Notes under the pieces: model-generated | Databases searched by the model: none | What the model saw: the letters and a program-made list of their open reading frames with translations, nothing else | Told to the model about the DNA's origin: nothing | Program-made: the position numbers and the translations under genes | Source of the DNA: Lingula anatina | Lineage: Eukaryota > Animalia > Brachiopoda | Direction: 5' to 3' | NCBI GenBank assembly: GCA_051362555.1 | Contig: CM120642.1 | Location: forward strand, 30,504,001-30,568,000 | DNA length: 64,000 nt | Shown: positions 16,105 to 61,432 of the stretch, one piece after another | How positions within the stretch are numbered: the first letter of the stretch is position 1 | How the letters are laid out: each line of letters starts with the position of its first letter

Positions 16105-16139
<35 letters not shown>

Positions 16140-17299: not shown

Positions 17300-17331
<32 letters not shown>

Positions 17332-17611: not shown

Positions 17612-17756
17612 GACTCGGTGATGGTTTGGTAGTAATAAAGAGGTTGGCCGCGTTCGCAAATGACCGCTTTCTGACCCAGTTTCTATTAAAAACACTGCGC
17701 AGAGTCTTACCCTGAGTTCACCTCCATTATAATCAAGAAAAGAAAGAGAGGGACAT

Positions 17757-19044: not shown

Positions 19045-20795
19045 TTACTTCTTCTTGGACACACCCACAGTTCTACCTCTGTGTCCAGTGGTCTTGGTGT
19101 GCTGACCTCTCACACGCAGGCTGAAAATAAATGAAATGTTCCATTTACTAATACATGTATCAATATATAATTTTCACATATTGTTAATTCTTATATAATG
19201 TAAATTGTTTCAATTGGATTCCTTGGAAACGTATTAATGGCCTTAACTGAATAAAACATTTTGCCACATTCACAAGTGAAATTAAGTGTTCTTTTATTTC
19301 AACAACCATCTGTTGTCCAACTACTAAATTTAGACGATGACATCGTTTTTGTATAACCCTCATCCTAATTTAAGAAATTTGTGTTATAAAAACAAATCTC
19401 GTGGCAAATCACTCAGGCAATACTAACTTTAGTATCCCCCTGCTCAGCATTTCAAACCTTAATCACAGAAATACCGAGTCCCCTGTTGGAGCTTCCCACA
19501 AGTATTGAAATATTCAACCCTTTTAGCTTGGACAAGCCACTCTTAAACATTATCAACCTGCCTTACCCCCAGTAGCCCAGTAGTGTCCAAGCCCCCTGTG
19601 CCCCCCACCGCCCCCAAACCTGGCCTTACCCCCAGTAGTGCCTGAGCCCTCTGTGGGCCCTGATCTTCTTCAGTCTCTCCAGATCTTCACGGAGCTTGTT
19701 GTCCAGGCTGTTGGACATGACCTGGGTGTACTTGCCGTCCTTGACGTCCTTCTGTCTGTTCAGGAACCAGTCAGGAATCTTGTACTGGCGAGGGTTGGAC
19801 AGGATGGTCATCATACGCTCAACCTGCAAGTAACCAAGCATCTGGGCTGCAATGTTGAACTGGGATAATTGTTTTAATATCGGCAGTGCATTTGTGGCAT
19901 TTTCACATGATGGAAGGACATTTTGGGGAGGGTGTTTATAGCTTTTTAACACACTGATGGAGTATTGTATCATGAATTATGTATCGAGTTTAAAACTTAT
20001 AACATATGTGCAACAACAGAATTGTAAATTAATAGAGCTGAACACCTACCTCTTCCTCACTGAGCTCTCCGGCCCTCTTGCTGAGGTCAATGTCAGCCTT
20101 TCTGGCACACACGTGTGAGTAGCGGCGACCAATACCCTACAAGTATCACACATAAACTGTTGAACACATTCCCATTAGAATACACAGTAACACAGTGAAT
20201 CAAATAATATACAACAATCTTTATTGTCCATGTCAAAACTACCTCTCTCTCTTCTTTCCCTATTTCTGAACAATTCAAATCAAAATACATTGACTTTGTT
20301 TGATGTTTTAAGGGATAATTAATCCCATACAGTACCAAAAGAACGAGTACACCTGGAAATTGTCTACATGCAACTTACATGATCCAAGATCTAAGGACAA
20401 AACATTTGGCTTTACCACTAGCAATATATTATCTACGGTGTTTTAACAAGTTTGTACAAAAAAATTGGTTTCCTTACTTTGATTGCGGTCATGGCGAACG
20501 CAATTTTGCGTTTGCCATCAATGTTGGTGTTCATCACACGCAAGATGTGCTGGAACTTCTCTGGCAGTACCAACGTCTGAAATGAAACACCATAATACAC
20601 GATTAATTTAGGATAAGCGTGGACATTAAGTACAATAATTTTCACAAAGTGCAATAAACAGGCCTTAAATAAATATATACTCGTGTACTTTATAAACAAA
20701 GTAACTATATGATTGCCATAATTGGCCAGAATCATGTTTCACAGGGACAGATGAAACGGATTTTAGGTTCACTGTTGACTGATTGCACCCACCAT
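19045..20795 (-). CDS. RPS18: 40S ribosomal protein S18 (uS13), 5 exons
   Basis: ATG-only exon 20795-20793, then 20576-20478, 20136-20050, 19823-19630, 19120-19045: [34 protein letters not shown]|GIGRRY...[17 protein letters not shown]...[23 protein letters not shown]|[24 protein letters not shown]. Confidence 0.99.
19377..19495 (-). ncRNA. Candidate intronic box H/ACA snoRNA in RPS18 intron 4
   Basis: Minus strand: 5' hairpin with 11-bp upper stem ctcggtatttc/gaaatgctgag, internal pocket and ctcc/gggg base; H box ATACTA (19435-19430); second hairpin closed by gtta/taac; ACA (19382-19380) plus 3 nt. About 118 nt, in a ribosomal-protein host gene. Confidence 0.6.
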
Positions 20796-20852: not shown

Positions 20853-22422
20853 ATGGCAGGTCTTGCAGCCGAAGATTTTTCGGACGAGGTAGTTTTGTTT
20901 TGCAGAAACTTTTCGTTTCTTTATTTACACTAAAAACAAAATCACCAAACGTTTAAGTGTATTTATTATGTAAATATGTGCATTAAAAGGATTTCAGTCA
21001 GATCAATGTTTTAGAGGGGACTCCAAAAGTTTGGTGTGGCTTGATTTTTGCGGTTGATCACCGCCCCCCCCCCCCCCCCCCATCCCCTGCATTCTTATTT
21101 GCGACTGTATTGCAGGTCTTTCTGTCTAGCACTGGATGTTACGATGATTCTGTATTCGATTTATGAACTAGTTCAGTTGATCAGTACAAAAAGCAAATGG
21201 GTACTTTGCACTGGTTGTATTGAGGTCTCCAAATAGCTACAAAGCAGTTAACAGTGCTGAATGTTTACCTGTAGTTTACTGTCATTTAATTTCAGATCAT
21301 TGATCCAAATCAGTTACACATGGGGGAACTTGACTTAACTTCAGAAGACTTTCTTCTTGATGAAGTAGATTGTAAGTTATTATAATATCTTACAGTTTTT
21401 ATCAGACTGTAGCCAGCAATTTCAATTTTTTTCTGAAAAAGTGGACCTTTTACCATAAAATAATGCCATATAATAATATAATATAATACACTGTATATTC
21501 TTGTTGTTAAAGAGTGAAGTCATACAAGTAGGTTGTCTGAAGAAAGAATGGCAAACCTCTGTATTTGTTCTGTTTTTTTTGCAGTCCATATCCAGCAAAA
21601 TTTAGAAGATGACATTGTAAGGGAGGCACTCAAAACAGTGAGTTGATGTTTAAGATGTTATGAAAATATGCAGAGATGTATTCAATTTTTATTGTTAAAC
21701 ACATTTTCTGTTTAAAAAATTGAATTATTTTTATTATATTTGTCATGTGTAAATGTATATAATTACTCGTCATAAGTAGATAATTTTTCTAATACTTGTG
21801 AGGTAGTTATAAACATTAGTGTAGTTGATATTCTCTGGTGAGGCTGATATGATGTGTTATTTATACATTCCAGGGTGTTGACCTGAGGCAGTATTCTAAA
21901 CAGGTAGAACAGGAACTTTTAGAAGTGGAAAATGCCTCCATTCAGGACTGTATCCTTTCTTTTCCCAACCAGTGGCTCTATCAATAAGTGCTATTTCAAT
22001 CCTAAACATTGTTGGTATTTTAATCACTCTCTGTTAATAAAGTTAAACATTAAGCAGGAGTAGGTAAAATACATAGAGAAGAAAAAGGAGAAAAATATGC
22101 TTGATGTTTTTTTTATGCTGTCACTTAAAACCCTTGACAAACACAACAGATATTAAAGAAAGTCAGAACATTGCCAGTCTACACACACAGATAACAGCTT
22201 GTGATTCCATATTGGAGGTGAGTTGATCATTTATTTGTGTCATGAACAGGGTTTATTATGACAGAAATCAGTTGCCTTTGAAACTCTGGGTGTCTACTAT
22301 TGGTGCAAACCTATGAACTGTAGTTAGGGTTTTGCCTGTGATTATAGTTACATGGATTCCAAATGGGCAATATTGGATGTTTAAACGATTTCCAAGAGAG
22401 TGCAACTTGCAACTACATTAAA

Positions 22423-22473
<51 letters not shown>

Positions 22474-24356
22474 CCACAAATTTCATTGGAGACTGGATGA
22501 CTCTGGGGAGAAAGCCTTGACAATAACACACACAATTGTTTTTCTTTTCCAGACCATGGAACAAATGCTGCAGAGTTTTCAGACTGACCTGAGCAGCATC
22601 AGCAGTGAGATACAAACTCTCCAGGAACAGTCCATTGCTATGAATATCAAACTCAAGAACAGGCAGGTAAGATGATTTCATGTATTATGAATATACAGTA
22701 TATCAACACATTTTCACTGGGATATATTGGGTCCAATGGTTCAAAACCTGTGGTCTCCACACCTGTCTGTAGTCGGTTGAATGAAATTAGTTAATATTAA
22801 ATTAATTGTCATCGTATTAATTGGTTGTATGATGTCTGCATTTTGTACACAAGGAATTTTGAGTTGAATGTTGTATATTTCAGGCTGTGAGAGGGGAGCT
22901 AAGCCAGTTTGTTGATGAGATGGTAGTCCCAGAGTCCATGATCAAGTAATAAAACAGTTTTTTTAAGTGTAGAATACCTGGAAATACTCTCTTTTTGCAT
23001 AAGTTTGAACTAACATGATTCCTTTTTTTTTGTTTGATTATATTTTGTTTATTATACAAATCATTTCTGAATTAGTGAGATGTTACTTTGTTCTCATTAT
23101 TGTTCAAATATTGCAACTAGTTCAGTATTAAAGGCAATAAAGTGTGAAGATTTTCAGATCATTGCACTTCAGGTGCCTAGATCATTGATGATGTATCACT
23201 TTTGCAGTCATATATTAGACAGTCCAGTGACAGAGAGGGAATTCTTAGAGCAGCTACATGAACTAAACCACAAGATAAACTTTGTAAAAGAGCAATCTTT
23301 TAAAGAGTCAAGATCATGTATGGACGTAAAGGACATACTAGAAAAGCTGAAAATTAAGGTATTTAGTGACAAAGTTTTAATTACTGAAATGTTGAAACAC
23401 AAAAGGAAGGCTGTTTGATTTAAATGATGGTTTATTGTATATAAATTTTATATGATGGTATAATTTGACTTTAATTTCGATAGTCAAATTATTTTAATTT
23501 TTATCAATACTGTAACATTAAAATTGCAGTAAGATCATCCTTTGGGTTTATGATAATACAAGTATAATACTGTGGTAAGTATGAATGACAAGATATGTAT
23601 TCAAAACTACCATATTTATTTTTACACCACTTGCCTATAATATATCATTTCCTTAGGCCATAGCAAAAATCCGAGAGTTCCTACTTCAAAAAATTTACCA
23701 GTTCAAAAAGCCAATGACAAATTATCAAGTGCCCCAGAATGCCATGCTCAAGTTTAGGTGAGGGGTTAACACTGTATGAGTTAACAAAAAATCAAGTTAA
23801 TCAGCGTCCTTGTCTTGTATATGATCAAACTTCTTCATAGAAAAGAACACAGAAATCCATCAAAATCCAATGACTTATGACTATTACTGATAAAGAAAGA
23901 ATATTCTAGTTCTAAAAACTATCTTGAACTGCTTTTAGTCTAACTTTTGATTACCTGATTATTAATTGACTTATGAACTCAGAAGGGACTGTTTTTATTT
24001 TAAGGGTGTGATTGATGGCTTGGTAACTGGCACATTGCATATGTTTCATATTCATATGTGTATTTTCAGGTTTTTCTATGAATTTCTACTGGCCAATGAG
24101 CGACATGTTGCCAAGGAAGTTCGTGATGAATACCTGGACATAATGAGCAAGATTTATTACTCTTATTTCAAAGGATACTCCAGTCGCCTTATGAAACTAC
24201 AGGTAAGTCCTATGGTAGATATTAAAAAGAAAAAAAGGTGATGTCAGAACTGTAACCAGGGGGTGGGGACTGCCCTTTTTGCCAGGAACCAGGCTGCTCT
24301 GCATAAAATTTGATCAAGATGCATAAAAATATCATGGTAAAAGGTCCAGTTTGTTG

Positions 24357-24390
<34 letters not shown>

Positions 24391-27300
24391 AGATTGCTGG
24401 CAGCAGGCCTGTATGTGCACCATTTTCCCAAGATAATTATTATAGATTAGTGAGGAATTTGAGTTATTTAAAGATGCAAAACAACACTTGAATTGTATTT
24501 TAACAGCATTAAAAAATTTTATAGAAAAATCTTAATTCATAAACTGTTTTTGAAATGTATGCCTTAAGTGTAATGGCCTAAAATGTAAAACAATTATAAT
24601 ACATTGAATCACCTGTTAGAGAATAATGTTGCAAGCTTATTAGTGAAACACCTTCAATATTCTTCTTTCAGTTTGAAGAAGTAGCAGACAAAGATGACTT
24701 GATGGGTGCTGAAGACACAGCCAAGAAAGATATCCTTTTAGTATAGTAAACAATGCATTTAAAAAGTATTAAACTCTTTTTATTATGTAATTTTGTAATT
24801 GTCATATCGATTGGGACTTGTTTCTTAACACCACCCACGTTTCTTTTCCTCCAAGCCAGCTCTGAAAAATAGGTCCACCATCTTCACTGTGGGGAACAGG
24901 GGTGCTGTACTTACGTCAGAGTTAGAAGCTCCAATAATTGTTCCTCATGCTGCGCAGAAGTCAGATAAAAAGGTAACTGTATTATATATTTTGAGATACA
25001 TTGTGAATAATAAGTGATAAGTCTTGATTTCCCCATATAAGAACTACATGATAATGACTCAGACTAGTCACTTATTTATTTAGCAGGAATCTAAGATTTA
25101 CAAAATGTTTGAAAAAGATTTTAATAAATTTAAATTTGACTTTAGTTCATGGCTTAACAAGATTCGAGTGATGAAATGTAACATTTTACCATCTTCAACT
25201 CTTACAACAATATAAAATTATGTAATATGATTATAATGTTTTCTTTTTGTAGTACACCTTTGAGAGCCTCTTCCGTAGCCAGCACTATGCCCTGCTGGAC
25301 AACTGTTGTAGAGAGTACCTGTTTATTGTGGATTTCTTCATGGTGTCAGGGTCTGCAGCACAGGACCTTTTCAATGCCGTGATGGGGAAGACCATGTCCT
25401 CTTTTCTGGTAAGTGGGGGAAAGGGAGGGGGGAGGGGGGTAGACCCGAGAAGAAGACTGAGGTGCAAATTATCTGGTCTTTTGGCAGCTAGACAAAATTA
25501 GTGCAATCCTTGAAACCCCCCCCCCCCACCCCCACCCCCGAGTTGCAGACATTTTATGTGAAATTTGCAAACTAGGTACCTTGAAATTATAAAGAAAATC
25601 TGAAACTCCTACCCCCCTCCCCCCCTTTTATGGCATTCCTTATTTCTTTTTTTTCCTGTTTCAGAAACAGATGGACTTATTCACCAATGAATGTTTCGAC
25701 TCCATAGCAATATTCCTGTGCATACATATCATATACAGATTCCAGGTGGCAATGCACAAGAGGTCTGTCCCTGCTCTGGATAAGTAAGTACAACTGTGTG
25801 TAATGTATGCTAAATTGAGTACTCTGATATAATGATAATGAGATCTGAAGTTCATTATCAGATATTTTCAAGGAGACTTACAGATAATCACTCCTGGATA
25901 TGCAATTTTATAAGTCATCTAGCACTAAAGTCTTTGAAATTTTAATTTTATATGTACTGGTATATTTGCTAAAATATCTTCCACTTCTTTACAGCTTAGT
26001 ATAATTATGATGTTATTAAAAAAATTAAGAGTATTCCCATTTTAAAAAATCACCATTCTTTTCTTAGATACTGGGAGACATTGTTGGAGATACTGTGGCC
26101 AAGATTTGAGCAGATTCTTCATATGAATATACAGAGTGTGAAAGACTGTGACCCCTCCAGACTGGGGCCTATAGATACCAGGCCACACTATGTGAGTACA
26201 TGTGAATATACAAAGTGTGAAAGACTCTGATCCCTCCAGACCTTTTAGAAAAAAAAAAACGTGGACTGACTTATGGGAAAATTGTTATTTACTCCAGGAA
26301 AATTCATTTTTTGGCCAAAACAACAGTTATTATCTATTTAATACATGTAAGAGCTTCAGATATTAGCTCTTGACTGAGTATTTTGACAGCTTCAACCAGT
26401 ATCTATTCTTTGTATTTTCCAGATTGTTAGAAGGTATGCAGAGTTCTCAGCAGCTATAGTGGGTCTTAATGAGAGCTTCCCCAGCGAGAAAGTCAACAGA
26501 TTATTGGCTCTTCTGCAGGGGGAGGTAGAAAACTTTGTGCTGCGTATGGCTGCTGAGTTTTCGGCAAGGAAAGAACAGCTGATCTTCCTGATCAATAACT
26601 ATGATATGATGCTAAGTGTTATAATGGTAAGTTTCATCTCACTGACAAGCAATGGTCTCACATTCTTCCTTTCGCACATTTTCAATATGTTTATTAACAC
26701 TATTCTGAATACTTCATCAGACTGATTACAGTAAAGGAGAAAGCAGTGTAAATATGTTTGGAAGTCCATTTTTCAGGAAAGAACTCACGAGGACTCCAAG
26801 GAATCTGAGAGTTTCAAGGAACTGCTGGCAGCCAGAACCCAGGAGTTTGTGGAGGAGATCTTGGCCCCCCACTTCGGTGGCCTCATGTCCTTTGTTAAGG
26901 AGTGTGAAGTGCAGTTAGAGAAGGGGAACACAGAACAGCTGAAACACCAAGAAAGTAAGTGAATAGGAGAAGCTAGAGCAGGGATTTTGCCAGGGAAAAA
27001 GATTGGAATGAAAATGTTTATTGAAATTTTTTAAGTTTGACTCTACTTGAAGATTTCAGTAAATAAAAGTTTGAAGGGATTTATAGTTGATTAAGAGTAT
27101 TTAGAGTGGTACGTTTATCAAAAAATATTATCGTATAGATTATTTAAGAATTATTGAATATTCCCTTGTTTTGTGCAAATCTAAGTGGCGAGGTAATGTT
27201 TTTGTGATACTTTGTTTCATAGGGCGAGTTCAGCAGATAGTACGAGGGTTCAACTCCGAGTGGAAAAAGGCGATTGAATTGACCAATCAGGATGCTATGA

Positions 27301-27727
27301 GGTCTTTTACAAACTTTAAAAATGGAACACAGATTTTACAGGTAAATCCATAGCCTTACATCATCAGTTATTTATAAGGTAGAATTAAGTCACCACCCTT
27401 GTAGGAAATGTACACATACTGTAGATGCTGCAGACTTTGTGTGTCATTATCTGAAGCAGGAAGTGGGGAAAGAACTTTTATACTGTATAAACATAACAAA
27501 AAGATCATTGTTTATTGCCTTTACTTTAGGATTATTGGTTCCAGCAAAGTCACTCAAACTGGGTTGTTTGTTTCTTCCAGGGTGCCCTGACCCAGCTGAT
27601 CCAGTATTACCACAGGTTTACCAAGATCATGTCCCAGGCCCCATTTAAGAGTATGGCTATTAGGAGTGAGCTTATCAACATACATCATGTCATGGTGGAG
27701 GTGAAGAAACATAAACCGACTTTCTGA
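20853..27727 (+). CDS. VPS52: Vacuolar protein sorting 52 (GARP/EARP subunit), ~19 exons
   Basis: Spliced peptides: GVDLRQYSKQVEQEL...SIQDYIKESQNIASLH; MEQMLQSFQTDLSSISSEIQTLQEQS; FFYEFLLANERHVAKEVRDEY; RRYAEFSAAI; LIFLINNYDMML; SFTNFKNGTQILQ; LIQYYHRF...VMVEVKKHKPTF*. TGA at 27725-27727. Some internal exon edges are approximate. Confidence 0.97.
21950..22149 (+). other. U12-type (minor spliceosome) GT-AG intron in VPS52
   Basis: 5' site GTATCCTTT; branch point CCTTGAC ~10 nt before the AG; the junction restores QD-Y-IKES. Confidence 0.9.
24730..24838 (+). other. U12-type AT-AC intron in VPS52
   Basis: 5' site ATATCCTTT; branch point TTCTTAAC; 3' end ...CCCAC; the junction restores KK-G-FFSSKP. 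Confidence 0.92.
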
Positions 27728-29017
27728 GAGGTTGCCTCATCTTGATATATGAAGTCATTTCTGCATAAGTGAGGGCATGGTGTTGTCTTGATCTGTGGCG
27801 CCATCATGCAGCAATCAAGGAGATTACTTGCATCTTGATTTCTGATTATTTCATTGGTCATTATATATAAGATGACACTGATCGGTGCTGATTCTAAAAA
27901 TGGGCGTTTTCTATAGGAAACTTGTCTTGCAATATGTTATTGTGATTCAGTTTATCTTAAACAGTGGGTATTTAAAATTCATCGGTAATAGCCATAATGT
28001 CATGATTGAGATTAAAAGAAGAATGAAACAAAACTTTGTTAGTACAGCTGAGAGTCAAAAACTTCCTCCATACGGAGATAGTCTAAGTTGAGACAACGGC
28101 CTTGTGCTTACCAATAAAGGTGCAAAAATATTCAGAAAAAGGAGCATTCAAAACCAGTGCAATATTGAAATCATAATAACTTTAAAAATAGACGTAAAAT
28201 TTCTAAGATTCATATATATGTAAAAACATACCAAAATGACCACACACCAGTTTGAATAATTACAAGGTACATGTACTTTTAATAAGGTAGATATCATTTA
28301 AGTTTTCAGTCCTGTAGCCAGCATTTCAAATTTGGGGGGGGGGGGGGGGTCTTTTCATCATGAAACCAGGTGTACCTGGACCAAATGTTACCCAGAGCAG
28401 ACCCCTTTCCAGCAAAAATTGCAGTTCGGTTTACACCCCTCTGCCCTGGCTACGGGTTTGTGCTTTTATCCACTTTGAAGCACATGACAGTCACTGTTGT
28501 TATTCAGGGGATGTATTGATTGGCATATATATGACATGTTCCTGTATTCCTGAAATAAAATATTTGTGTATTATAAAATCACCTTTAAGCTTTTTCAGAA
28601 ACTGCTCAACACTCCTCTTATTGCACTAGCAGAGTGTAAATATTGTTTGAATAATTTACTGAAAATATGCAACCCCTCCAAATTTGGAATTTCAGGATTC
28701 GACAATACCATTTCAACGTCGCTGTAAGGGGTAACTTTTAAAATGAATAACGGTTTTGAAGTTCGATAAAAAAAGCACTTGTTCTGCTTGGCAACATTAA
28801 AAACGCCATCCAATTAAGAGATATCAACATATTTAGATCTACGTAGAAACTACGATGTGGGCCAAGAAAAATGCACCACGTTTTACGTCACACGGTTACT
28901 TCTCTTCGTATGACTTCAAAATTCTACATTAAATATATTTTAAACAACACAAAAATGTAATACTAAAAAATGTATACTAAATGGTAAATACGCATTTCAC
29001 TTCCAAAACGGCAGTTA

Positions 29018-29103: not shown

Positions 29104-30629
29104 CGATCGATATTGGAAGATGGTGAACCGACATTGATTACTATCATCATTCTATTATCCGTTTATGGCACTTTTTCCGCCAAAACTTAAATTTTTCATC
29201 CCTCTAGACTCGAGAAGTGCTAATGTCGCTGTTAAGCAAATACATGTAGCACCTGTACTTTGGATCTAGGTCACGTTTGCTTATGGCTGCAACCATAAAC
29301 AGACAGGTAGGCCTATCTGTGGATATTTCCAAGCCAAGGAATTCTTCGAGCGATAAGACCGCAATGTTCAGAAATGAAGATCGAGAGCAGTTAAGGTACT
29401 AAACATGTATTTTTGTTGACTAATTTCAATGTACATAACCAAGAAAGCGACACAACTAACACACAGTTGCATTTTCGAATTTTACTTCCTTATCCGCCAT
29501 CTTAACGGTCACTGATACGATGACTTGACACAGGGCTCCTTCCCATTGAAACTATAGGTCTAAGTAGATAGATCCGACAGATTAACACATCTCTTGTTTC
29601 TAACGTCTCGTTAAATCATCCAAGACTCGTATTTTTTCTCAACACCAGAAAGAGGACTTAGTGGTCCTCCCTTTTGTTCGCATAACCATTTCAGATGTCT
29701 GACAGTCACTCAACAATTAAAAACCGTGTTCTCAAAGAAAACAAGATTTGAAGATACAGAAACAGATCGTTGGACAGACGACAAAAACGCTTTGAAGATT
29801 TTCTGAGGTCTATATTGCCTGGTAATTTTTCAAAACTACATGTTCCAGTCAAACAATATCGTAGGCCTATTCAACTTCAAAAATATATAATCTGCTTTTG
29901 CCTTCTTTTCGTTTAAGGTTTCCTTTTCAAAATTTTCTCGACAAATTGAGATTTCCGTTAAAAACAAACTATTTTCTACCCACGGATCATTGCTCGGTAC
30001 GTCCCTGCATGCGTTTGGATGTTCAATACCATTTTAGTTTTAAATGACCAGCCAGCCACAATATCACCGCCGTGCTTTCTTAATTGTTTCAGAAGGAAAT
30101 ATCAATATCCTACATTTAATTCAAAGATTTGATCGTTTGAATTAGGGAAGATGAGTATCTTTGCGTGGTATGTAGGCATAGACACAGAAATTAAGACTGT
30201 GGGACATTTCCAAACGTGGATAAGTTATCTTTTACTTTGCATCGATCAAAACAGCGGTATGTCTTGCTGTACAGTCACCAAATTACTTATAAAGACGCTG
30301 TTATTCTGCTGCTTTATCTGTTGATCCAATTTTATCTGCTTCCAGGCAAACACTCTATCATCATATCGTTTTGCACAAATAGAGAATGGGCGTAGGCTAA
30401 TACAACTGTGACCCGACACAAAGTACCGTCGTCAATAATTTACAGAATATTGTTCCAATACAAATTTTCACCTCTAATCTTTTGTCAGAAGCAATTAGAT
30501 TAAAAGATTGTTAAGGCTTAATTTGCTAAAAAAATAATTTTGAAAACTGCGTCCCATAATAGATTTATTTTATCTGAAATAAGAACACCATATATTGCAC
30601 GTAAGTGTTATTCGATATTCGCCGGTTGG

Positions 30630-30838
30630 TACATGTACACCCTGAGCTTCAGAGATAACTTGACACTAACCTCTTCACAATAGCCTATCTTCGTCGTGTC
30701 AAGTAACTTGACACGACGAAGATAGGCTATTGTGAAGAGGTTACTGCTGATTTATTTCAAGTAACTTGACACGACGAAGATAGGCTATTGTGAAGAGGTT
30801 AGTGTCAAGTTATCTCTGAAGCTCAGGGTGTACATGTA
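30630..30838. repeat. Long foldback palindrome with internal direct duplication
   Basis: tacatgtacaccctgagcttcagagataacttgacactaacctcttcacaatagcctatcttcgtcgtgtcaagt is followed by its reverse complement, and the inner part of the return arm is present twice. Confidence 0.9.
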
Positions 30839-31193
30839 ACACTTGGGGTCAAACTACTGATGTATTGCAGCTTCTAAAAGCAAAAGGCAAGCGTCAGTAG
30901 AATGTGTACCACAGTCACGTGACTTTTTGACACAATCATTTCTTCTACTTGATATCATAGAGAAATTCAACATTTTTTTTATTTCTTCAACATCAAATAC
31001 CACAGAACACGTGTATACTATATCACTTCTTATTGTAACGATTAGATAATTGTCTGAAATATGATTTACTGCTGATTTATTTCAATTTCGTATCCCTTTA
31101 TTTCCCTTATTGAACGTCAAATTAAATGTTTTGATATGACAGGGGGCACATGCTGCGGACAGTCTTAAGCGTGAAACAGGAATTTTAAGAAAA

Positions 31194-31231
31194 ATGAGTC
31201 TCGTCACCTCAGGTAAGTGGGATTAAATATA

Positions 31232-31286
<55 letters not shown>

Positions 31287-34200
31287 GGGGGGGGGGGTAT
31301 TACTTCACCACTGTATGTTAGGATAAATTGTATTTATTTATGTATTCTCTGAACCTTCTTAACGAACACCAGACAGTATTTACACATGTACATCTTTTTC
31401 ATTTTTCTTTTGACAGACATGGATCTTCAGAAAAGGAAAAAGCTTCCCTAGTTTATTGATGCGTCAATAAATTTTGAACGCATAGTAAGGGATGGCATAG
31501 TGTTTGTCGCTTCCGTTTTCATTTAATGCTCATTAATATTTTGCCGTCTATAAATCAAGATTACTTGAGCAAATGCTTGCTATTGATTTAAGCTGGTGCT
31601 GAAACACGTGCAGCAGAGGGCGTGAGGGTGTGGACTGACCAGCAACACAGTGTCACCGTCCAGGGCCAAACTCAAAAGGTTGGAGGTCGCAATGATCAGA
31701 GGACACTCGGCTGCTGTCTGGAGGTGAAAAAATATGGCATGGTGATGCAGGTTGTCGGAATCACATGCAGCCACTGGTCAATTGGCCAGCGTTGTTTTAT
31801 TCGGCACCAAGAGAGAGACATCGATATTGGTGTTGTTACCGGCAGATGTGCTGAGTGGACCGTTATAAGTCTTACCGATTCCTTTCTGGATATCTTGGAT
31901 GCAGGGCTGTGGTTTGGTAACGTTACGGAGGCCTTGGCAGGAGGATGGGGCGGCGTACGACGAAAACTTCCAGTTGGTAGCATAGTCAATGTGATGAAAC
32001 AAGATAACGTCGTGACGGCAAAAGTGACACAACACCACGATAGATTTTTTAACGTCTCCTGCGCTTCTACGGCTCATTTCACAGAACACGACTGCGGCAG
32101 TATTGTTGCAGTAAACAGCGTTTTATGCGGTGTGGTTGTACATGCCCCTAGTGACCAGGAAGCAGAAGTGGCCCATTTCACCGCTGTCCTGTCCAAAGTT
32201 AAGTCTGATCTGTGGTCACACTCAGATTTCACCGTGGAACTGGCAACAGGAGCAACACGTCTTAATGCTGGTAATAATACATCAAAGTTGATGTCGTGCC
32301 TGATTTTACTATGATTATTTTTATATTAAAATAGGAATGCAAAATTACTGCACATTAAATCTGAATGTTTAAGAAGTTGTAAAGAAAATACTAACACCGT
32401 TTACTGCTGTTTATGCGCTTAATTGATGTATATAGTGAAAGTCGTTTTCCTTTCATTTTAGAAATTAAACCTGTGCTTGAAGTCGACATGGCGGAATTGG
32501 ACATGGCGGAATTGGTGAATCATGCAGATTGTTGCCAGGAAAGAAGTGCCCAGTTGCCTGCTGATTCCACTTCGTACCAGCCACCTCCAGTTTCGTCTTC
32601 TGATGGTACATCAAACTTTAATTGAACTTGATATATATATTAAAATAAATTTCACAGCATTCTATGTTTTAAGTTTTCCAATGGCAAGCGTTGTAACTAT
32701 AATATTTTTCCAAATTTTGCGGGTATACATATGTCTGAAGCAGTTAAGCTTAATTAGCTATCCGTGGTAGGAGAGTAATAGTCAAGCTTGTCGACCATTA
32801 CGGTAGAGTCTCCCCCGTTGTATTAGTTCGCAAAGAAGGTTTTAGCTTCATTTTCTCTATATCTTAATATTGTGTGATTTATTCTATGCAGCAGCTAAGA
32901 ATTTTATACTCTTGTCCTGTCGTATATGAATATACAATTGGCTATCATTTTTTTCGTTTTTTGCAGAGACCGCAGAGAAGTGTTTTAAGCAGCTACTTTT
33001 AAAGGGCACGAGAAAGGAGAAACAAATCAGACTAATGGTCGTTGGTCCTCCGAAAGTTGGCAAAACACATATTATAAGACAACTTTTTGGTCAGCAGTAT
33101 GATCCGGAGGGAGACAAAAACACCAATGGAGTTGTGGTCAACTTCGGCGCTTGCGTCATCAATGAAGAATCTGCAGTAACTTGGAAAGCTAAATCAGGTG
33201 CTTTCTTTCATTAGAAGTAGTGTATTTCTTATGATAATACGCCTGTCGAGCATTAATTGGCGAGTGTAACTAAGATTTATTTTTTTACTTTATTTATTTA
33301 GAAACATGTTTTGTGATTTTCTTTTGCAGCCACGATCACTTCTTCAGATATAAGGACATTAGACTCGCCAAGTGCTTTCTTAGCGTTTGATATTTTCTAT
33401 CTCCCGAGTGTGCAACAGAGAACTGATTTTTATCCTGGTTTTTAACATTATGTAGAACATTCGTGCATGCCCTATACTTTTGTGTAGTCAAAATTATTTG
33501 AGACATTTCATAATTGACGGTTTAGCTTTAGAAAAATTTTTCGAGAACGCGCTAATCTTCTTGACTTTATTTTGTTCTAATTCTATGCACCATATTATGG
33601 TTGGATAACAGAGGAAGAACACGCAGTCACACAAGCTAGGTTGGTTGCGAAAAAAATGATTTCTGTTGAGGCGAAAGAGAAAGGTAACTTTATAAGCGTT
33701 TACTGGTAAATAAATATAATCTCAGCGCTAAAGCGAAATGATTTACGATAAGATTGCTTTTGAACGATGAGCATTATTTTGTTCTCTCTCTACAGTGCCG
33801 CTGAAATTTTAGCATAGGCTCTACTGTGCTGAGCTGCGGGTTTTTCATGCGCCCTGTCGCGGCTACCATGGAATATAATTTTCGTATATGCGATGTTTGC
33901 TTTTTTTTAACAATAGAACACTGCCCTGTGATGTAGTATTGCGTTCGAAGGGCTGAAATAATTTTTATGTAGGCCTACGTTAAAAAATATCATCCCACAG
34001 TATGTATAGCTTGATTACTTTAAACTTCTGATCATTGCAGTGGCAACTGAATGGGAAGAAATATTGATTTGTCCCAAGTGCCCGACTGTGGTTGAGCCAG
34101 GTTTGAAAGTGTGTGAAAATTGCAGTACACCTATTGCAAGGAAAAGTATGTGCTCTGTTTACAATCCCTCTTTTGATTTCCCACTGTGATTTACAGATTC

Positions 34201-37200
34201 TATTCTACATGTAAATTTTAACCGCTTAAATGTGCATATAAGTAGTGCTAATACTACATAGCAGATAAAAAGCCCTGAAATTATCTTTGATCCCGCATAT
34301 TAAATATTTTTTCCAACAAGAACCGTATTTGTCTGCCGCAGTAAAATAAAGATTAAAGCCAAGGTAGAGTATTAGAATCAAGGTTGGGCCTCCACTACTC
34401 TCTACCAGGACCATAGTTGGATTTTTCACTCAATATCTACAGATATGTCCCTGGCTAATTCATGACACTTTTGGGGTTGAGAAAGTGCACTTAATTAAAC
34501 TGTGGCCCTGGTAAATGGGAGGTACCTCTTGATTTAATTTCATTTATGTCTGATAATTAATGGGTCTACACTTCCCTCTACCAGGGCGACAGATAGATTT
34601 TTTACAGATATTCACAGATTTGTCTCTTGATAGATAGACGGTCAGACCTAAAATGACGTCTATCTATCTATCTGGAGACCTAGGCCCTATCTGTGAATAT
34701 CTGTAAAAAATCTATCTGTCGCCCTGGTAGAGGGTAGGTCTACACTATATAGCTACTAAGAATCTTTAGTCCCGTAATATAGATTTTCCATGAAACAATC
34801 TAACAATAAGATCTGATTATTATTATTATACCTTCATACAATATATATTGCTAAAAGTGCCGGAGGTGGCGGATGAATCAAGTATCCAAGTAGACCGTGA
34901 GGACTGTAATAAGCTGGAAGACGGTATCGCTGATGGTAGGGAAATTCTGATAAAGTTTATCAAGTTCAATATTTAGTAATATCCAATAACACAAGCACAT
35001 GTTTTAGATCAAAGGCGTGTCAGATTTGTCGTGGCAAGTTTTAATTACAAGCAGTTCTAGTAACATGGCTCCATAATACTGATGATAATAATATGTTATT
35101 CTATGGCTTCCTATTCTGTTCAAATTATAGACCGAGGTTGCATGTTGAGCAGGGTAGGTTTACTGTCAACACTAGTAGGGCCTACTGTTGAAACTTTGGG
35201 AGGCTAATCACAAATTTATCTACGTATGTTTTCTAGATTACGTTTATGCAATGGTGTATGAACAATACAAGTCGAAAATAAACTCTAAACCATGCTCCAA
35301 CTGGATGCTAAGCAACTGGTTTAGTCTAAGAGAGGGTGGCAGCAGCCACGTTTCCGGTACCGAAAAAGACACGATCAGATTATCAGTTTGGGATTTGGGT
35401 GGTCAGCATGTCAACTGCAGTATCAACCAAATAATCCTCACTGGTAGGGCTATTTATTTACTGGTCGTTGACTTGACCAAGGGGCTTGACCAGCCAATGA
35501 ATATTGAGGAAACGGGTATGTGTGGCAAGGACCGAGCTGTGGTAGGGGTTCCACGGACCCTTGGTGGTAATTTTTAACTTCTGTAACCTTTTTAAAGATA
35601 ACTTTACCAGTGAAACTATGCGTACCGACCTGGTTACGTTTGTAGTTGAAGTGGTCATGAACTTTTTGGTATGGGATGAGGATAGTCTTGTAAAATCTAT
35701 TTATTTTGCTTCTTTTGGGGCATATGATTATCTGAGGGAAGTTTGGTTTTAAGATATGATGGATGATATTTATTGGCACTCATTATAAAATTCACAGTAT
35801 GAAAATAGGAATTGAATATGTAATGAGAATATGGGTAAATCCTCCATTGATATTGCATCTGTTTGCATGAGTATTAAACTCGCTTTTAATGTGCTTACGT
35901 TATATCTTTCTATTTAAGGTTTTCTGGAATTCTGGATGAGGTCAATCCATCAAAATTCTGTTGGTAAGGGGAGTCTCCCTGAAGAAGCAAAAGATAATGA
36001 CAGACTTTGTCCTTCTATCATCATAGTTGGAACTCATAAAGACAAGGTAGTTGACTATGAACAGTTGTATAAAATATTTCATATATAATTGTTTTAAGCA
36101 ACATGCATGCATGCGCACTCTTGATAAATGCTGTTGAATGTTTCGGACAGTTTGATCAGAGATCGACTTGAATAAAAATACATTACAAACAAAATACCCA
36201 TTGCATAAATATCATGGATAAAAACTTTTACACAAAATTAAAAAACACGCCTCTTTTGAAACGTCATACACTTACATGTACATTTAATTAGTGTACTTAC
36301 AAATGGTCATTTCTGCGAAAATTAATGCTGCGCGTGTTTTCAATCTCCTCAATTCCAGTGTGCCACAAAATTTCATAGACCCATTCAGAACATGAAACAT
36401 GGCATCAAGGAATAATGTTTGTTCGCTGACTGAGATTTCTATCATTACCACAATCCATCAATACATTTTACAATAATCTGGGCCATTTTCTTTCAAACAA
36501 AGACTACCAGCATCTTTTTTAAATAAGATATTTTAATTTCCCATCTTTATTTTTATTGATTCAAGGTTACCCAATCTACAAAAGATGAGCGCTTAAATGA
36601 AATCCGCAAGTATCTTGAAACAAAACCACATTACGATCAAATACACGGAGTCTTCTTTGCGGTCGACAACACTGATATGGACGATCCCGCCTTACAGGAT
36701 ATTAGACAAGCTATAGAGGAGATAGCTAAACAACAGACATATTGGGGTAAAAAAAGACCAATTCGCTGGGTGCTTCTCGAAGAAAAGTTGCGTACCATAT
36801 CCAAGGAATGTCCATATGTGCATTTTAGTGAAGCTGAAAGCCATGCCAAAAAGTATAATATCAGCAAAGACGAACTGTACATTTGTTTGTCCTATTTTCA
36901 TGAAATCGGTGTGTTCCCATTTTATGATCATGGAAAGTTGGGGGCTATAGTCATTTTGGACCCGCAGTGGCTGTTCAACGCCATCAAAACTGTACTCACT
37001 CTACCACATTGCGAACACATTAAGCGTCATTCTCAGACAAAATCTTATTTGAAAGAAAAGGCTATACTGAGAGAGAAGTTCGTGAACCTTGCTTGGAAAA
37101 ATGACGACAGACTACTGGAGAATAAGAACCTGTTGCTTAAACTAATGCAGCGTTATGATCTTGCCTATCTGTACACACCCAGAAATCTAGACCTTGCGCC

Positions 37201-40200
37201 TCCATGTGCTCTGGGGGAGAGACTGTTTTTGATCCCAAGTCTTCTTAAGGTAGCCGAACCGAAGGATTTCATTCTCGCCGATAACGCTGTTATCAAGCCC
37301 ATTTATATTCAGTCCAAGTATGACTTCATACCCCAAGGACTATTCCTCCGTCTTCTCGTGGGTATGCATAAAAAAATGTTTCTCCAAAGTAACCTTCTAT
37401 TTGGCGATTATGCATGCTTCCGGATTCAAGCACCAAATTCCAACAGTGCCACAGGAAGAGCCTCGGCCCACGTGCTTGAGATGAAGTATGACGAATATAG
37501 AATTAAACTGAAAGTAGGGACATTGTCCCCCGGCGAGAAATTATATACGCCCTGCAAATCAGCTCTGTATGCTAGGAACATTGTTGTACAAAAATTTGAA
37601 GGGCTTAGACGTAAGCACTACCCTCATCTGGAATGGGACTTCGTGATTGAGCTAAATTCGTCTGGGGAAAGTGTTTTCGTACCCATAGATGAAGACAATG
37701 TACTCCAACAAGGTTACTTAATTTATCAAGGACAAAGACAGACGGTCAATACGAGTCTTTACTCGATTTGGTTTCAGAGAGAAGATGAAAAAGTATGTTT
37801 TTTTTTCATTTTATTTCAATTTTAGGTTTATATCAGTTTATGAACAAGTATGTAAACGAATGGAATTTTTTTCATATTTTAATATTAAAATATCTAAAAG
37901 ATGTATCTTTAAAATCAACATGTAATAAATGATTAATAATGTGAAACATGTATGCTTCATTAGCTGTTATTAAAAATATATAAATGAACATTTTTTTAAT
38001 TTTTCAGTGTCAGGTGTTTCCAAAGAAAGGTAAGCGTTCGGGGCCCGCTGAATGGCCCTGAAATTTTTTGGTATTTTAGAGGGCGACTGGTGCCATTTGG
38101 TATCGTTTAGAACTATGATTCAGCTAGTCAAATTTCTAATTTCAAGAGGGAACCATTGGGGGGGGGGTCAGGATCCCCCTGACAACCCCTTAAATCCGCC
38201 AATGATGTAACTTAATTGATATGTTTGATAAAAGGCTTATTCAATTTAGTTTTCTGCACATTCCTAAAGGTAAAATTTGTGCCTCGTTGTTAATAATACA
38301 AAAAGATACCATTTCAAATGCATATTTCCTATTTAGAAGAAAAGGAACAAGAAAGTAAAAATCAGGCTACATTAAAAGCTGCACCTGTGAAAGGCTCATC
38401 CACCCCTTACACATGTATAGGTATATAATTTTTGTCACGGGTTATGAAAAGTGAATGAGCACTCTTAATAAATGCATTGTTATTTTTGCCAATGTATACA
38501 ATCTAGCTAAAATAGGTACACCCATGCATAACAACAAAATACAGAAAATTGCAGCTTTAATGGTTCTTTCATACTGAACCGAAAAGGAAATTTAGATACA
38601 TAACCATTTATTGCATGTCGTGAAGGATTGGAAGAATGTGAAGAAGTTGAAGTTCCACCTTGCAAAGAAGACGTATTGACTTTTGATAGCCTAACGGTGA
38701 GGTTACAACATTTATTATGTAATTTTCGTCATACCTATCGTGAAAATAAAGAACACTTTATGATTACAACATTTAGAATTAACATGCATTTTAACTTGCC
38801 TGTTATGGACAAACGTGTGAAATGTCACTACAGCAAAGTCATTTGTATTTCAGTTGTGCATATTGTATACTGAACGATATTGTTATTTCAATGCATACGT
38901 GGCAAAATGAGACAATGATATTATCATATATTTCTATTATTTACACTGTATAGGTCTATGACTGTTTAACAGAGAATAGAGGAAGGGCTGTGATTATAAA
39001 CAATGTCAACTTTTACACTGATGATAACCCCAAGTATGAAGATAGATACGGAACAGAGATAGATGTACAACGTTTGACTAAACTGTTCGAAAAACTACAT
39101 TACCTTGTTATAACATATACAAATCGACCAGCTTGGGTAAGAAATATGCTTCTCATGTGTAAATTTCTACTTTGTGCCTTATATGACAAACACTGGCTTA
39201 TATACCTAAATTCAACTCTATTTGAAATTACATTTGACAGATCAATGATTTTAGTCTGGTAACAGCATTTGAGGAAGGTTAAAAACATTGAATGAATGAT
39301 GGTCTATTTTCCAGAAAATAAATAAAATTGCCTTGGACGAAGGCCAATACGACCATGGGAAGTATTCTTCTTTTATAATGGTGATACTGAGCCATGGGTC
39401 TAAGAACACAGTTATTGGTTCGGATGGCGCACACATTGCATATGATCAAATACGACAGCCATTCACCACCACTAATTGCCCGTCCTTGAAGGGAAAACCG
39501 AAGATGTTTTTTATTTCCGCATGCCAAAGCGGTGAGTAGAAATGTAAACATCACCCTTGGAAGAAAAGTTTTTATGCTAATGTACAACTGGCAACAACAG
39601 CCTGGGTTTCCAGTTACGTTGAAATATACATATACTTCCACCCTTATTGGATAGTACACCAATAAAGGACGCCCCCCCCCCCCAATAAATAAAAAAAAAA
39701 GAAATAATCAAGTGTTGAGATGTGATTATAATTATTATAACTGGTATATATTTTTGTTTTATAAACCAGTGAATTACCTGTACCAGAGATGTTTTTGTTT
39801 CCATTTTGTTCGTATTGTATGAGTGTTTCTGTATGTACGTTGGCCTACCCGTCTGTCAGGGTAAAGCGCTTAAAAACTATTTTTCTTTCATAAGAAATGA
39901 AAGCTAGCTTTTTTTATGAACAGATCAGAGTGCCAGCGGCTCACCCGAAAATGAAGCACAAGGCCCATCTCAGTCCACCAGGTTGAATGCTTCCTCAGTT
40001 TCTGGCGCCAGCGGAGATCCACCAGATGATGCTGACATGATACTGGCAACGGCCACCACCCCAGGTGAGGTGAAAGTATAGTTAGTGGCACCACTATGAT
40101 AAGCATGGGTTAGGCTCTGGTGTAGTAGTGCTATTTTCAAATACTAAAAAAACTTACATAACTGCAGGTTTACATTTAGAAAAGCTGCTAATGAATGAGG

Positions 40201-40782
40201 CGCATACTCTAAGATAACCACTGGGCTTGATTTATTCCCCTAAAAGAATTCTTATATTTCAATATGAACGTGGATTCTGGTAATTCTTTATATTACCAAT
40301 CATATTGGATATAATAATACAGAGTAATAAATTATCCTTATAGGCAAAGTGTCATGGCGGTCCACTGAAACGGGTACCAGATTCGTCAAAAGTCTCGTGA
40401 AAGTATTCTCAGCCAAGGCATGCGAGGAAGACCTGGCATCCATGTTGACTTTGGTATATGAATGAAAATGTTTTTAACTCAGAAGTTGTCACTACATATG
40501 GAATAACTAGTCACTAGTAACAATTATTCAAATGCAATTATAAGTCAAGTCCGATTTGGCTTTTCAGCAAAGAAACGGTAATAATGAGGTAGCCTTTGCA
40601 GCACAGGACAATTTTGTTCATTAAACACGTTTTCTTTTTCACAGGTTAACAATGAGGTCGCCAGCATGACTTCTGGTGGGCGGAGTCAAGTTTCAAACAT
40701 ACAGTTGAACACTCTGAGAAAGAAACTGTTTTTTTGTCCTGGATACTATATGCAGGATGGGGAGTTGAAACAGTATAAATAG
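31194..40782 (+). CDS. Roco-caspase fusion protein: trypsin-fold protease-like domain, Roc GTPase (with Zn ribbon insert), COR, caspase (C14); ~1325 aa, 18 exons
   Basis: Exons 31194-31212, 31593-32270, 32462-32605, 32967-33197, 33612-33683, 34041-34145, 34858-34935, 35237-35566, 35919-36046, 36566-37792, 38008-38029, 38337-38420, 38626-38696, 38954-39136, 39315-39531, 39924-40064, 40344-40453, 40645-40782. All GT-AG and phase-compatible, 3978 nt, no internal stop. Roc: IRLMVVGPPKVGKT, WDLGGQ, AIYLLVVDL, FWMRSI, IIIVGTHKD. COR: WGKKRPIRWVLLE, LSYFHEIG, VILDPQWL, FLIPSLL, IPQGLFLRLL. Caspase: RGRAVIINN, DRYGTEID, ILSHG, CPSLKGKPKMFFISACQS, DMILATATTPG, SWR, TLRKKLFF. Confidence 0.85.
34572..34736. 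mobile_element. Foldback MITE with 9-bp TSD in an intron of the Roco-caspase gene
   Basis: ~47-bp TIR ccctctaccagggcgacagatagattttttacagatattcacagat. ggtctacac at 34563-34571 and 34737-34745. A degenerate relative lies at ~34400-34520. Confidence 0.8.
38035..38204 (-). mobile_element. Partial copy of the 17757-18001 MITE family
   Basis: Reverse complement matches ggcggattta...ttagaaat(g/t)tgactagct...accaaatggcacc...aaataccaaaaa. Confidence 0.7.
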
Positions 40783-41023: not shown

Positions 41024-42640
41024 AGCAGGACACTTAAACTCTTGTTTTGCATCCACTTCAGAAATAAACGGCCTTGCTATTGGAGCTTCATAGATTTGGT
41101 GTTGTTATATCCCATCTACCTAAGTCAGGGAACGTCCTTATAAAAAAACTTAGAAACATAAAACCTTTTTATTATAACAAGAAAATAAAGTAAGAACGAT
41201 AAGAGAATGTCTTTTTATAAGAAACCAAAGTAAAGTTGTTCAACTGCTATCCTCCTTCCACTGCAGTCCAATGCAAAAGATACGCGTTGCTGTGGTGCAT
41301 TAAAGATGTTTTTAAAAGGATGTAAAAGGAAAAAAAGATATAAAAATATGTTGTTAAGTTTCTCTTTCATATAAAAAATACGGTCCCAAGATATTTGAAA
41401 ATCCAGTACATCCCAATTTTTGTTTCCCCTTTCTTTTCAGGCCAGAGAGCCAATTGCTACAAGGCCGAGTATTGCCAAAGTTGTCAGGAATTCCCATCTC
41501 CCTCTACTGGTGAACAGAAAAGAAAAAAAAAGCATAATACTAGACCAAAAACAGTGATTCCAAATACTTAATATTTGGTACCTTTGTTAAATTTTAATAT
41601 TTAAAAATATTAGTGAATGCATCAAAACTTAAGAACCCATGGGGAATACTTAAAATTTTTACTCATAGTATCAAAAAAAAAAAAAAAATGAATCAAGTAA
41701 CAATTTCTAATTTTTGTATTTGTTTATATTCACAGAAAATTGTTGCAAATTATTTACACATTTACAAAAACTTCTAAAGCAGCTTGATATAAAGAAATGA
41801 TAGGATTCATACTTCAACCTCAACATAGAAGACTTCATGCCATCTTCACCAATCTCAATGAAATGAAGCTATAAAAATTACTTTCAAACATCAAAACAAA
41901 CTTGCTACAGATCATTCATTCTTAAATTTAAAATGTCATGTATATTATTACACTTACGCAGGTCAATGTTGTATCTAACTCTAGCATCTACATTCAAAAT
42001 ATAAAGTCCGCCTCTAGTCATAACATTGGGGCAAATTAATTTAACACAAAATCAATTTCATCCATCAATTTAGTGCAATAAATAATACAATACTTGCTGT
42101 TTGCTCAATGATATAATGTCAACCACACCAACCAATCGGCATTCACCCAATCCGCATTCACTCGGGGTGATAACTTGTGAAACGTGATTTCTATTCCAAT
42201 TATCTGAGATCAGTTGACTATTTACAAGCATATCACAAATGAACTGGACATCTGCATATATATATTTACATACCATAAACATTGTGTACAAGTTTCATAA
42301 CACATGCCTGAATACCCTTTCTGAATCTTAAAAATTACCTGCTTCATCTACTTTCATTCAATACAAATAAACAATTCAGTTCTGCTTTATAGGCAAAGCT
42401 GTATTTCTATTCCCATGGACTACTGCTATTATTTCATATTTCCAATTGTATTTTTACTAGTAAATCAGTAATGAAGTCTCTCTACACTGATATCAGGTTA
42501 AGCTGCCCATTGCTGTATAAATGTATCAAGCAATTCATATCAATTTAAGGCAAATATAAAGGTACAAAAAGGCTCGCTTTTTTTCACCCCCCTTCCCCTT
42601 AAAAACACTTTAATCTAGGCAAAATGGATAATACCCACAC

Positions 42641-44193
42641 TCAATTTGATGAGTTTGTCCTGCTTTCATATCTCTGTAAAGCATCTGTAAAAACTTTACC
42701 AGTTTCCACAAGCAAAGAGTCAAATATGGCATCAGCAAGCTGAAATTTCACAGCTAATTCATCGTCATCGTAATTTACCCATGAAGGTTCTTCTTCTCGT
42801 AACTCTTGGACTAAGATCAAATCTACCAAATCTTTCTTCTTGCGCCCTCCTAGTTTAACAGTCTTCTCATCCATCTTAGGTCTTTTGGAAAGACCTGTTA
42901 AGTTCAACACATGATGCTCCACCACTTCCTTCAAGTGATCACATGTAGTTGGCGGTGCCTTGCCCTTGTAATAGCGGTGCTGAATTTTTCGTGGCTTTTC
43001 CCAAGGTTCAGGTGTCAAATCCTCCTCATCTGCATAGATGTCTTTGATTAAATCACCAACAAGTTCAAATATCATCTTTTTGTAAACTCTCCTACTTGTA
43101 GCCTCTATATCTTGCCCTCTGTCCTCAGATGTAAAATAATCACCAGGTGGCGTCACAGAGTCAAAGGGCTCTCCATAGCGCCTAGCAGCCCAGAAAGCAT
43201 CGACTGCATTCCACGTTAATTTGATCACCTCCTCTTTTTTATGGGGGACGGCATAAAACAGCTCTTCTGTTAACTTTTGGAGATCCAACTTTGAGTACTC
43301 CTGCTTCGGTGCTACAAAAAATAAAATAAAATAAATAATATTAATAATAATAAATAAATAAATAAAATAAAAAAATATATATATATTGATACCAATCAAT
43401 TATTACTGCCAGTAGGGGGCCAATTAAGAAGTGACAATTTGTACCCTGAAAACCATGATCCAGACTCAAAGAGCATAAATATCTTTACTTTACAGGTACA
43501 ATATATGCGACCAAACTTGAATAATAGTGTGTCTTATTCCTGTACAGATGTGTATCTTGAGCATGGCAGATAGTAGTAGGTGTGTCCTAGGGGGTCACTT
43601 AAAGGGGGGGGGGGGCGCCACTGGGGATATTCATAAATCTGGGGTGGGAGATTTTAAGATGGGGCACAATTCCAGTGGGGACCACAGGCGCCACCTTCAG
43701 TCAATAACACCCTGTTCTTTCGTGTATACCTGGCAAGTTTGGGTGAGGTTAGCCCTACAGAAATGTGGGTAACAGAAGGCCAATACACCATAATGGTACA
43801 TAGGATATTATCTAAATTCGTTAGTCTGCCCTGTGCAATGTATGATTGGGTGTATAAATGTATATGGAAAGGGGAATACAGCAGAGTGTATCCAGTTGGA
43901 AGACAGGGGTGGGAGAGGGTGGGACATTGATTGCCCTGTTCAATGCAGCCCCTTGGGTAAGTTTTTAAAGACAGGAGCGTGGGTTGGGTGGATGTTTGAG
44001 TGATAGTACCATGCCAAATGCAGTCTTCCAATAGTACAAAGTGTACTCAGAAATATAGGGACGGTTAAAGACAAAATAGGCATGCAGCAATATTTGGGAT
44101 TGGCGGGAGGGAGGGGGGCATGATTACAATACACAACAATCCTAATTTCCTAATAAATCGAGAAGGCCTGTAGGTGTTTGTGTGTGTGTGTAC

Positions 44194-44257
<64 letters not shown>

Positions 44258-48110: not shown

Positions 48111-48169
<59 letters not shown>

Positions 48170-61345: not shown

Positions 61346-61393
<48 letters not shown>

Positions 61394-61396
61394 TAT

Positions 61397-61432
<36 letters not shown>

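Follow-up and report, generated by a model that had tools for sequence, protein, structure and literature searches.

His, Glu and Cys at the aligned catalytic positions of a predicted chymotrypsin-fold domain that heads a Roc-COR-caspase of the brachiopod Lingula anatina

Chymotrypsin-fold proteases with a cysteine nucleophile are found mainly in RNA viruses; viral 3C and 3C-like enzymes carry the motif G-x-C-G, and enteroviral 3C uses Glu as the acid. Fungal Ssy5 (Peptidase_S64), which shares this fold and has a signalling role in the cytosol, is a serine enzyme with a long prodomain, and the alpha-lytic/streptogrisin-type S1 proteases are secreted serine enzymes with the motif GDSG. For rice NAL1, passages of PMC12012508 describe a His234-Asp291-Ser385 triad and a hexameric cage, the trimer or hexamer being needed for activity. 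Here, a stretch of 64,000 nt from Lingula anatina (contig CM120642.1, positions 30,504,001 to 30,568,000; hereafter the window, numbered from its first letter) was analysed, in which exon 2 of the gene LOC106175244 encodes a predicted domain of this fold, joined to a Roc GTPase, a COR domain and a caspase.

Exon 2 (31593..32270, +, 678 nt) is preceded by AG and followed by GT, is flanked on both sides by phase-1 introns and is open in frame from 31592. Its translation matches residues 7-232 of XP_013412607.1 without a difference (LOC106175244, 1325 aa), a protein in which the trypsin-like domain stands at the N-terminus and is followed by Roc, COR and caspase. The motifs RTLGC, GITCSH, AEWTVISL, FTEHDCGSIV and LCGVVVH follow one another in that order, and the splice joint between exons 2 and 3 was present in all three RNA runs of one study (8, 1 and 3 reads); the single exon with five ordered motifs proposed by the first-pass annotation was thus borne out by splice-site ends, database identity and splice reads. 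Hydropathy in 11-residue windows over residues 1-50 was at most 0.6, with no hydrophobic N-terminal segment, and the best 19-residue value across the whole protein was 1.65, in agreement with the predicted cytosolic location and lack of a signal peptide that had been proposed.

Active-site positions were assigned by alignment (A3 unless stated otherwise). His67 (CAC, 31772..31774, +) aligned with His57, and His172-Asp173-Cys174-Gly175 (32087..32098, +; Cys174 codon TGC, 32093-32095) with Gly193-Asp194-Ser195-Gly196. Glu94 (GAG, 31853..31855, +) aligned with Asp102 in 7/9 alignments; in 2/9 the acid column was taken by Asp109 (31898-31900), and this column is Asp in 57 of the 58 aligned relatives. 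Judged by these alignments, His67, Glu94 and Cys174 occupy the catalytic His, Asp and Ser positions in order, and the substitutions at aligned positions are D102E, S195C and G193H; codons and substitutions are exactly those first reported, the last affecting the oxyanion Gly. The strand G186-V-V188-V-H190-A191 (32129..32146, +) aligned with positions 211-216, with Val188 at 213 and His190 at 215. The His of LCGVVVH, which the earlier comparison implied to be an S1-pocket His, therefore lies two residues off His213 of 3C, and position 213 is without a His. According to passages of PMC5508998, all 3C/3CL proteases keep His213. The motif K-x-G-R-T-T-G of bacterial relatives is lost in the exon 2 domain; in the relatives its K is conserved in 56/58 and its G in 57/58, although conservation of the His, GDSG and K/G columns was partly preset by how the relatives were collected.

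Sequence comparison alone did not place the domain. No Pfam family matched exon 2 at E ≤ 1 (Nal1_C PF25819, Peptidase_S64, Trypsin and Trypsin_2 included), and a PDB sequence search gave 3 matches at E ~1, all unrelated. Bacterial S1-type profiles could not tell exon 2 apart from shuffles: three scored it at 0.1, 8.9 and 1.8 bits (best shuffles 12.2, 8.0 and 7.2) and a further one at 6.1 bits against 10.1 for the best shuffle. The hhalign probability was 0.5%. An ordered family pattern with D/E and S/C allowed matched exon 2, 94/170 bacterial S1-type domains and 0/200,000 shuffles, a significance that is overstated because the pattern was written after exon 2 was known; a looser His...DxG pattern matched 35/20,000 shuffles. 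In a language-model feature search (Atlas), the best cluster was eukaryotic, mostly mollusc and Nal1-like (0.97, 181 features; Nal1_C on 16% of members), with bacterial trypsin-like clusters ranking next. Nal1-like/trypsin clusters reached 0.95-0.97 (159-186 features), Ssy5-type clusters 0.90-0.93 (Peptidase_S64 itself 0.90) and Peptidase_C3 0.90 (106 features). After removal of the Nal1-like/trypsin families Ssy5 came first, followed by Peptidase_C3, S29, C30 and S39, and every named family above 0.85 was a chymotrypsin-fold peptidase family.

For structure prediction, a reference set of 170 bacterial S1-type domains was gathered with a sequence motif and by further searches of genomes, and 58 of these with compact loops and <75% identity, the subset that best respected the motifs among four tried, served as folding alignment. 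The resulting alignment-steered AlphaFold model of the exon 2 domain (pLDDT 74, pTM 0.70; core pLDDT 79-92) is a predicted double beta-barrel, as the first-pass annotation had expected. In Foldseek against the PDB, the ten best rows all belonged to rice NAL1 (E between 1.7e-6 and 3.9e-6, TMq 0.56-0.63), which ranked first though absent from the folding alignment. The best 50 VIA-align rows were chymotrypsin-fold chains, judged by their titles, and included L5 protease (Z 17.4, rmsd 2.3, 166 aligned) and NAL1 (Z 14.3, rmsd 2.9, 178-180 aligned). Since the outcome of modelling depends on the chosen alignment, the fold is supported by model and features jointly; on these, exon 2 very probably encodes a chymotrypsin-fold (clan PA) double beta-barrel with a cleft between the barrels, and the proposed kinship to NAL1/Ssy5 peptidases is supported at the level of prediction.

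Viral proteases appeared in Foldseek with similar E-values, the top rows having lower TM-scores; the top viral match, at E 7.2e-7 and TMq 0.46, was a nonstructural protein of picorna-like type. This match, the single intron-less exon and a GC content of 0.50 in exon 2 versus 0.36-0.46 in five other exons would suit capture of a viral 3C-like gene that later degenerated and now serves as a decoy for viral substrates or inhibitors. We regard such an origin as highly improbable, given that features and TM-scores are nearer to cellular NAL1-like and alpha-lytic-type proteases, that GC3 (0.47) lies inside the range of the gene (0.31-0.51) and that the 3C hallmarks G193 and H213 are lacking. No picornaviral 3C chain was among the best 50 VIA-align rows, though such chains may stand further down. 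The model also resembled MamO, a degenerate HtrA-fold protein with reportedly a metal role (Z 14.0, rmsd 3.0, 158 aligned), and the 226 residues of the exon 2 domain include 8 Cys and 10 His, several of them at cleft positions. Repurposing of the cleft for metal binding or redox sensing, with His67, His172, Cys174, Cys65 and His190 lying around what was once the active site, is nevertheless very unlikely: MamO is one among many near-tied S1 folds, and C92 is Ser in other haplotypes.

Compared with the described systems, the exon 2 domain shares with NAL1/Nal1_C-like proteins (PF25819) the predicted double beta-barrel, the lack of a signal peptide and the T-L-G and T-x-x-H motifs, but differs in its H/E/C triad, the His at 193, the Roc-COR-caspase fusion and the missing Pfam Nal1_C match. 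The alpha-lytic/streptogrisin-type S1 proteases (L5, NAPase, SGPB) gave the best VIA-align values (Z 15.3-17.4, rmsd 2.3-2.6, 159-166 aligned) and have the same spacing from DxG to the next G-strand; unlike the exon 2 domain they are secreted serine enzymes with GDSG, and their structural match is partly built in because the folding alignment consisted of proteins like them. Picornaviral 3C and 3C-like proteases share the predicted chymotrypsin fold and the Cys at position 195, and Tulane virus protease aligned with the model at Z 12.9 (rmsd 2.7, 146 aligned); the exon 2 domain, in contrast, lacks Gly193 and His213, has H-D-C-G in place of the viral G-x-C-G and belongs to a spliced animal gene, not to a polyprotein. 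Ssy5 (Peptidase_S64) shares the fold but gave no Pfam match here. The domain is therefore not an S1/NAL1-type serine peptidase, because Ser195, Asp102 and Gly193 are all replaced, and not a viral 3C member, because Gly193, His213 and a polyprotein are lacking; it is built like the NAL1/alpha-lytic type with 3C-like triad residues and belongs to neither family. The earlier label 3C-like does not hold as a family name, Peptidase_C3 ranking below the Nal1-like/trypsin and Ssy5-type clusters and His213 being absent.

The main clue to the function of the exon 2 domain is that it is fused to Roc-COR and, further on, a caspase. The exons for the Roc GTPase (P-loop GPPKVGKT, DLGGQ, GTHKD) lie at 32967..36046 (+; Pfam Roc E 7e-4 and 1.1e-5), the end of Roc and the COR domain at 36566..37792 (+; COR-A E 3.8e-20) and the caspase p20/p10 exons at 38954..40782 (+; Peptidase_C14 E 1.3e-6, 2.6e-15 and 7e-5), with the stop codon at 40780-40782. 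Roc carries a ~100-residue insert (window 33612-34935) that includes a zinc-ribbon-like CxxC..CxxC exon (CPKC..CENC; 34041-34145, +), for which Pfam DZR gave E 0.002, below the cut-off. Roc is followed by COR, the GTPase motifs are present and the P-loop is intact; by its sequence, the LOC106175244 product belongs to the Roco and caspase families. The caspase has His1151 (ILSHG), Cys1194 (SACQS), DRYGT and VSWR, with an intact His-Cys dyad, and both Roc switch-II and the caspase QACxG motif are divergent. Its catalytic loop (39516-39531) reads SACQS in the window and in RefSeq, and reads of the RNA run X16 have GGG/GGT (Gly) at 39528-39530, an allele or paralogue difference.

Dimerisation activates initiator caspases. 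Passages of PMC4104024 define Roco proteins by Roc followed by COR, propose Roc-COR as a nucleotide-dependent dimerisation device and describe an inactive myotubularin ahead of ROCO in Entamoeba. A ROC-prodomain caspase, CAH1787638.1, is reported in the annelid Owenia fusiformis (passages of PMC11463336), and its supplement contains two Owenia Roc-COR-caspases, CAH1787638.1 and CAH1786849.1, the passages naming only the former as ROC-prodomain. Compared by eye within these sources, the order Roc, COR, C-terminal caspase is the same as in Lingula; CAH1787638.1 has almost nothing before Roc, CAH1786849.1 appears to have a Bcl-2/Bax-like N-terminus followed by Roc-COR and caspase in a single chain, and Lingula has the trypsin-like domain. 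The Owenia caspase keeps QACQG, in contrast to SACQS in Lingula. Because the Owenia proteins bear other N-termini (one Bcl-2-like, one nearly none), these sequences suggest an N-terminal slot that is swappable between lineages.

On balance we favour, with modest confidence, a catalytically weak or dead pseudoprotease that acts as bait or sensor on a GTP-gated Roc-COR-caspase. The degenerate cleft would bind a peptide ligand, which might be a damaged protein or come from a pathogen (a protease inhibitor or an effector); binding would shift the nucleotide-dependent Roc-COR dimer, the shifted dimer would bring two caspase domains together, and the paired caspases would trigger cell death or inflammation. 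In the simplest model, the Roc-COR-caspase core would be conserved and the input domain in front of it would differ from lineage to lineage. We favour a role in peptide binding or as a bait because exchange of Ser for Cys alone inactivates trypsin toward common substrates (passages of PMC6642262) and Gly193 and other conserved residues are also lost; inactive trypsin effector domains have been proposed as peptide binders or dominant negatives (passages of PMC7159879). Even with a pseudoprotease at its head, the protein carries the Roc-COR-caspase scaffold, reported only from an annelid in the literature found, over to brachiopods, and it points to a swappable N-terminal input (Bcl-2-like, trypsin-like), a logic like that of integrated decoys in invertebrate cell death.

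Several points weigh against an inactive bait. The modelling relied on an alignment of foreign sequences that we selected, and single-sequence AlphaFold gave pLDDT 31 and no usable model. The exon 2 domain keeps the equivalents of His57, Asp194 and Gly196, and both changed triad residues (Glu, Cys) are those of picornaviral 3C enzymes. By BLOSUM62-derived frequencies, a changing Ser becomes Cys at 0.022 and a changing Asp becomes Glu at 0.17, which makes joint drift uncommon. None of the 40 differences listed, of 152 between RNA reads and the window, touches the codons of H67, E94 or C174, a zero that is uninformative because only ~9% of codons are hit. Mouse KLK13 with G193D is active, and loss of Gly193 can thus be tolerated in some enzymes (passages of PMC2967472).

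One alternative is an active, narrow-specificity cysteine protease, convergent on viral 3C, that would have evolved from a serine protease of NAL1/S1-like type through D->E and S->C. Upon Roc-COR dimerisation it would cleave a partner or, within its own chain, the linker or the caspase. H/E/C in the triad columns, the retention of D194 and G196, the core pLDDT of 79-92, the rarity of joint D->E and S->C by chance, purifying selection on exon 2 (below) and an inferred cytosolic location that suits a thiol nucleophile speak for it. It is countered by G193->H, the missing His213, the lost K-x-G-R-T-T-G motif, a single-nucleotide change sufficing for either exchange, and one RNA run that may lack the annotated start codon; thiol-trypsin, moreover, is nearly inactive (passages of PMC6642262). 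We consider activity possible but doubtful, an estimate that is our own and not computed, with the kept residues and the uncommon drift weighed against a low prior. The same tentative standing applies to the wider proposal of an animal cytosolic chymotrypsin-fold cysteine protease, with His-Glu-Cys acquired independently of viruses and wired by Roc-COR to a caspase in a two-protease, GTP-gated death or immune machine. If true, viral 3C would have one of its few counterparts in animals here, and the example would show how a cellular scaffold switches from Ser to Cys.

RNA reads were mostly 85-95% alike to the window, pointing to at least 2 haplotypes or paralogues, the largest DNA difference being ~15% (36 other letters in 233). 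For exon 2, no indel was listed for any of 4 RNA runs, and pN/pS was 0.38 (38 exon differences listed: 17 synonymous, 21 not), these variation figures resting on the 40 listed differences of 152; exon 2 is under purifying selection. Loose read ends matching exon 1 occurred in 2/3 of the runs with the exon 2-3 joint, and X16 keeps the ATG. X16 also has joints over the majority of the introns between exon 3 and the final caspase exon (15 listed of 19, not every one a splice joint). In the X18 consensus (5 reads) an apparent GTG takes the place of the annotated ATG, with in-frame stops a short way 5' of it (31185-31212), and X18 reads show an apparent splice to 31614, by which 7 codons (31593-31613) are lost in frame. 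Three RNA runs from two other studies barely covered the gene.

Homologues were sought with several queries. A phmmer search of 1.84 billion representatives returned only the protein itself at E ≤ 0.001. With exon 2 as query, only the protein itself was found among 958 longer candidates, and none at E ≤ 10 among 225 of the same size; no relatives were found in plasmids, genome contigs or metagenome contigs. The full-length query returned only itself among 7,993 candidates scored, a search that is insensitive because it missed the Owenia Roc-COR-caspases. PF25819 matched 0/5 bacterial genomes and 0/14 controls and so yielded no reference set. Eleven matches in 61 actinobacterial genomes (E 0.02-0.9) were treated as chance. 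The lack of a homologue among the 1.84 billion representatives would fit a passenger in decay: a phase-1-1 exon brought in by shuffling, able to fold yet no longer of use, in which drift happened to leave H/E/C. So would the difference of up to ~15% between haplotypes or paralogues, the X18 features (GTG for ATG, upstream stops, exon 2 start 21 nt shorter) and the divergence of Roc switch-II and caspase QACxG. We judge decay improbable, since exon 2 is spliced into the transcript, shows no listed indel across the 4 runs and has a pN/pS of 0.38.

In the full-text literature searched, which did not extend to subscription papers, neither the LOC106175244 protein nor any trypsin-Roc-COR-caspase was found described. 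The accession XP_013412607.1 is absent from one supplement file of PMC11463336 and had no match in 12/13 supplement files of PMC8195603, where underscore handling may hide one.

The remaining parts of the gene are the coding part of exon 1 (MSLVTS + G; 31194..31212, +; annotated start ATG at 31194), the frame of which is open 5' of the ATG as far as a possible acceptor near 31143, and exon 3, an acidic Ser/Pro-rich linker (32462..32605, +; gene model, RNA reads). A candidate 42-nt exon at 33330-33371 was dropped, being skipped in RNA reads and RefSeq. Two palindromic MITE-like elements lie just upstream of the gene (30627-30841) and in an intron (34571-34737), with heavy coverage by unrelated RNA reads.

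No second copy of the exon 2 domain was found within the 64-kb window, which contains a conventional secreted-type S1A trypsin gene at ~790-2860 (-; motifs IGG, LTAAHC, DIAL). At ~9100-17750 (-), two or three GDAP1-like genes for glutathione S-transferase were recognised by eye, arranged in tandem. Two genes that we take to be ribosomal protein S18 (19620-20580, -) and VPS52 (20854-27728, +) stand head to head ~100-300 bp apart, a pairing also present in the vertebrate MHC region. A gene at ~42600-62000 (-) with CAP-Gly (E 2.9e-17) and DUF4378 (E 4.7e-5) is presumably CEP350-like. An 820-bp inverted repeat with 93% identity pairs 3436-4245 with 6359-7163.
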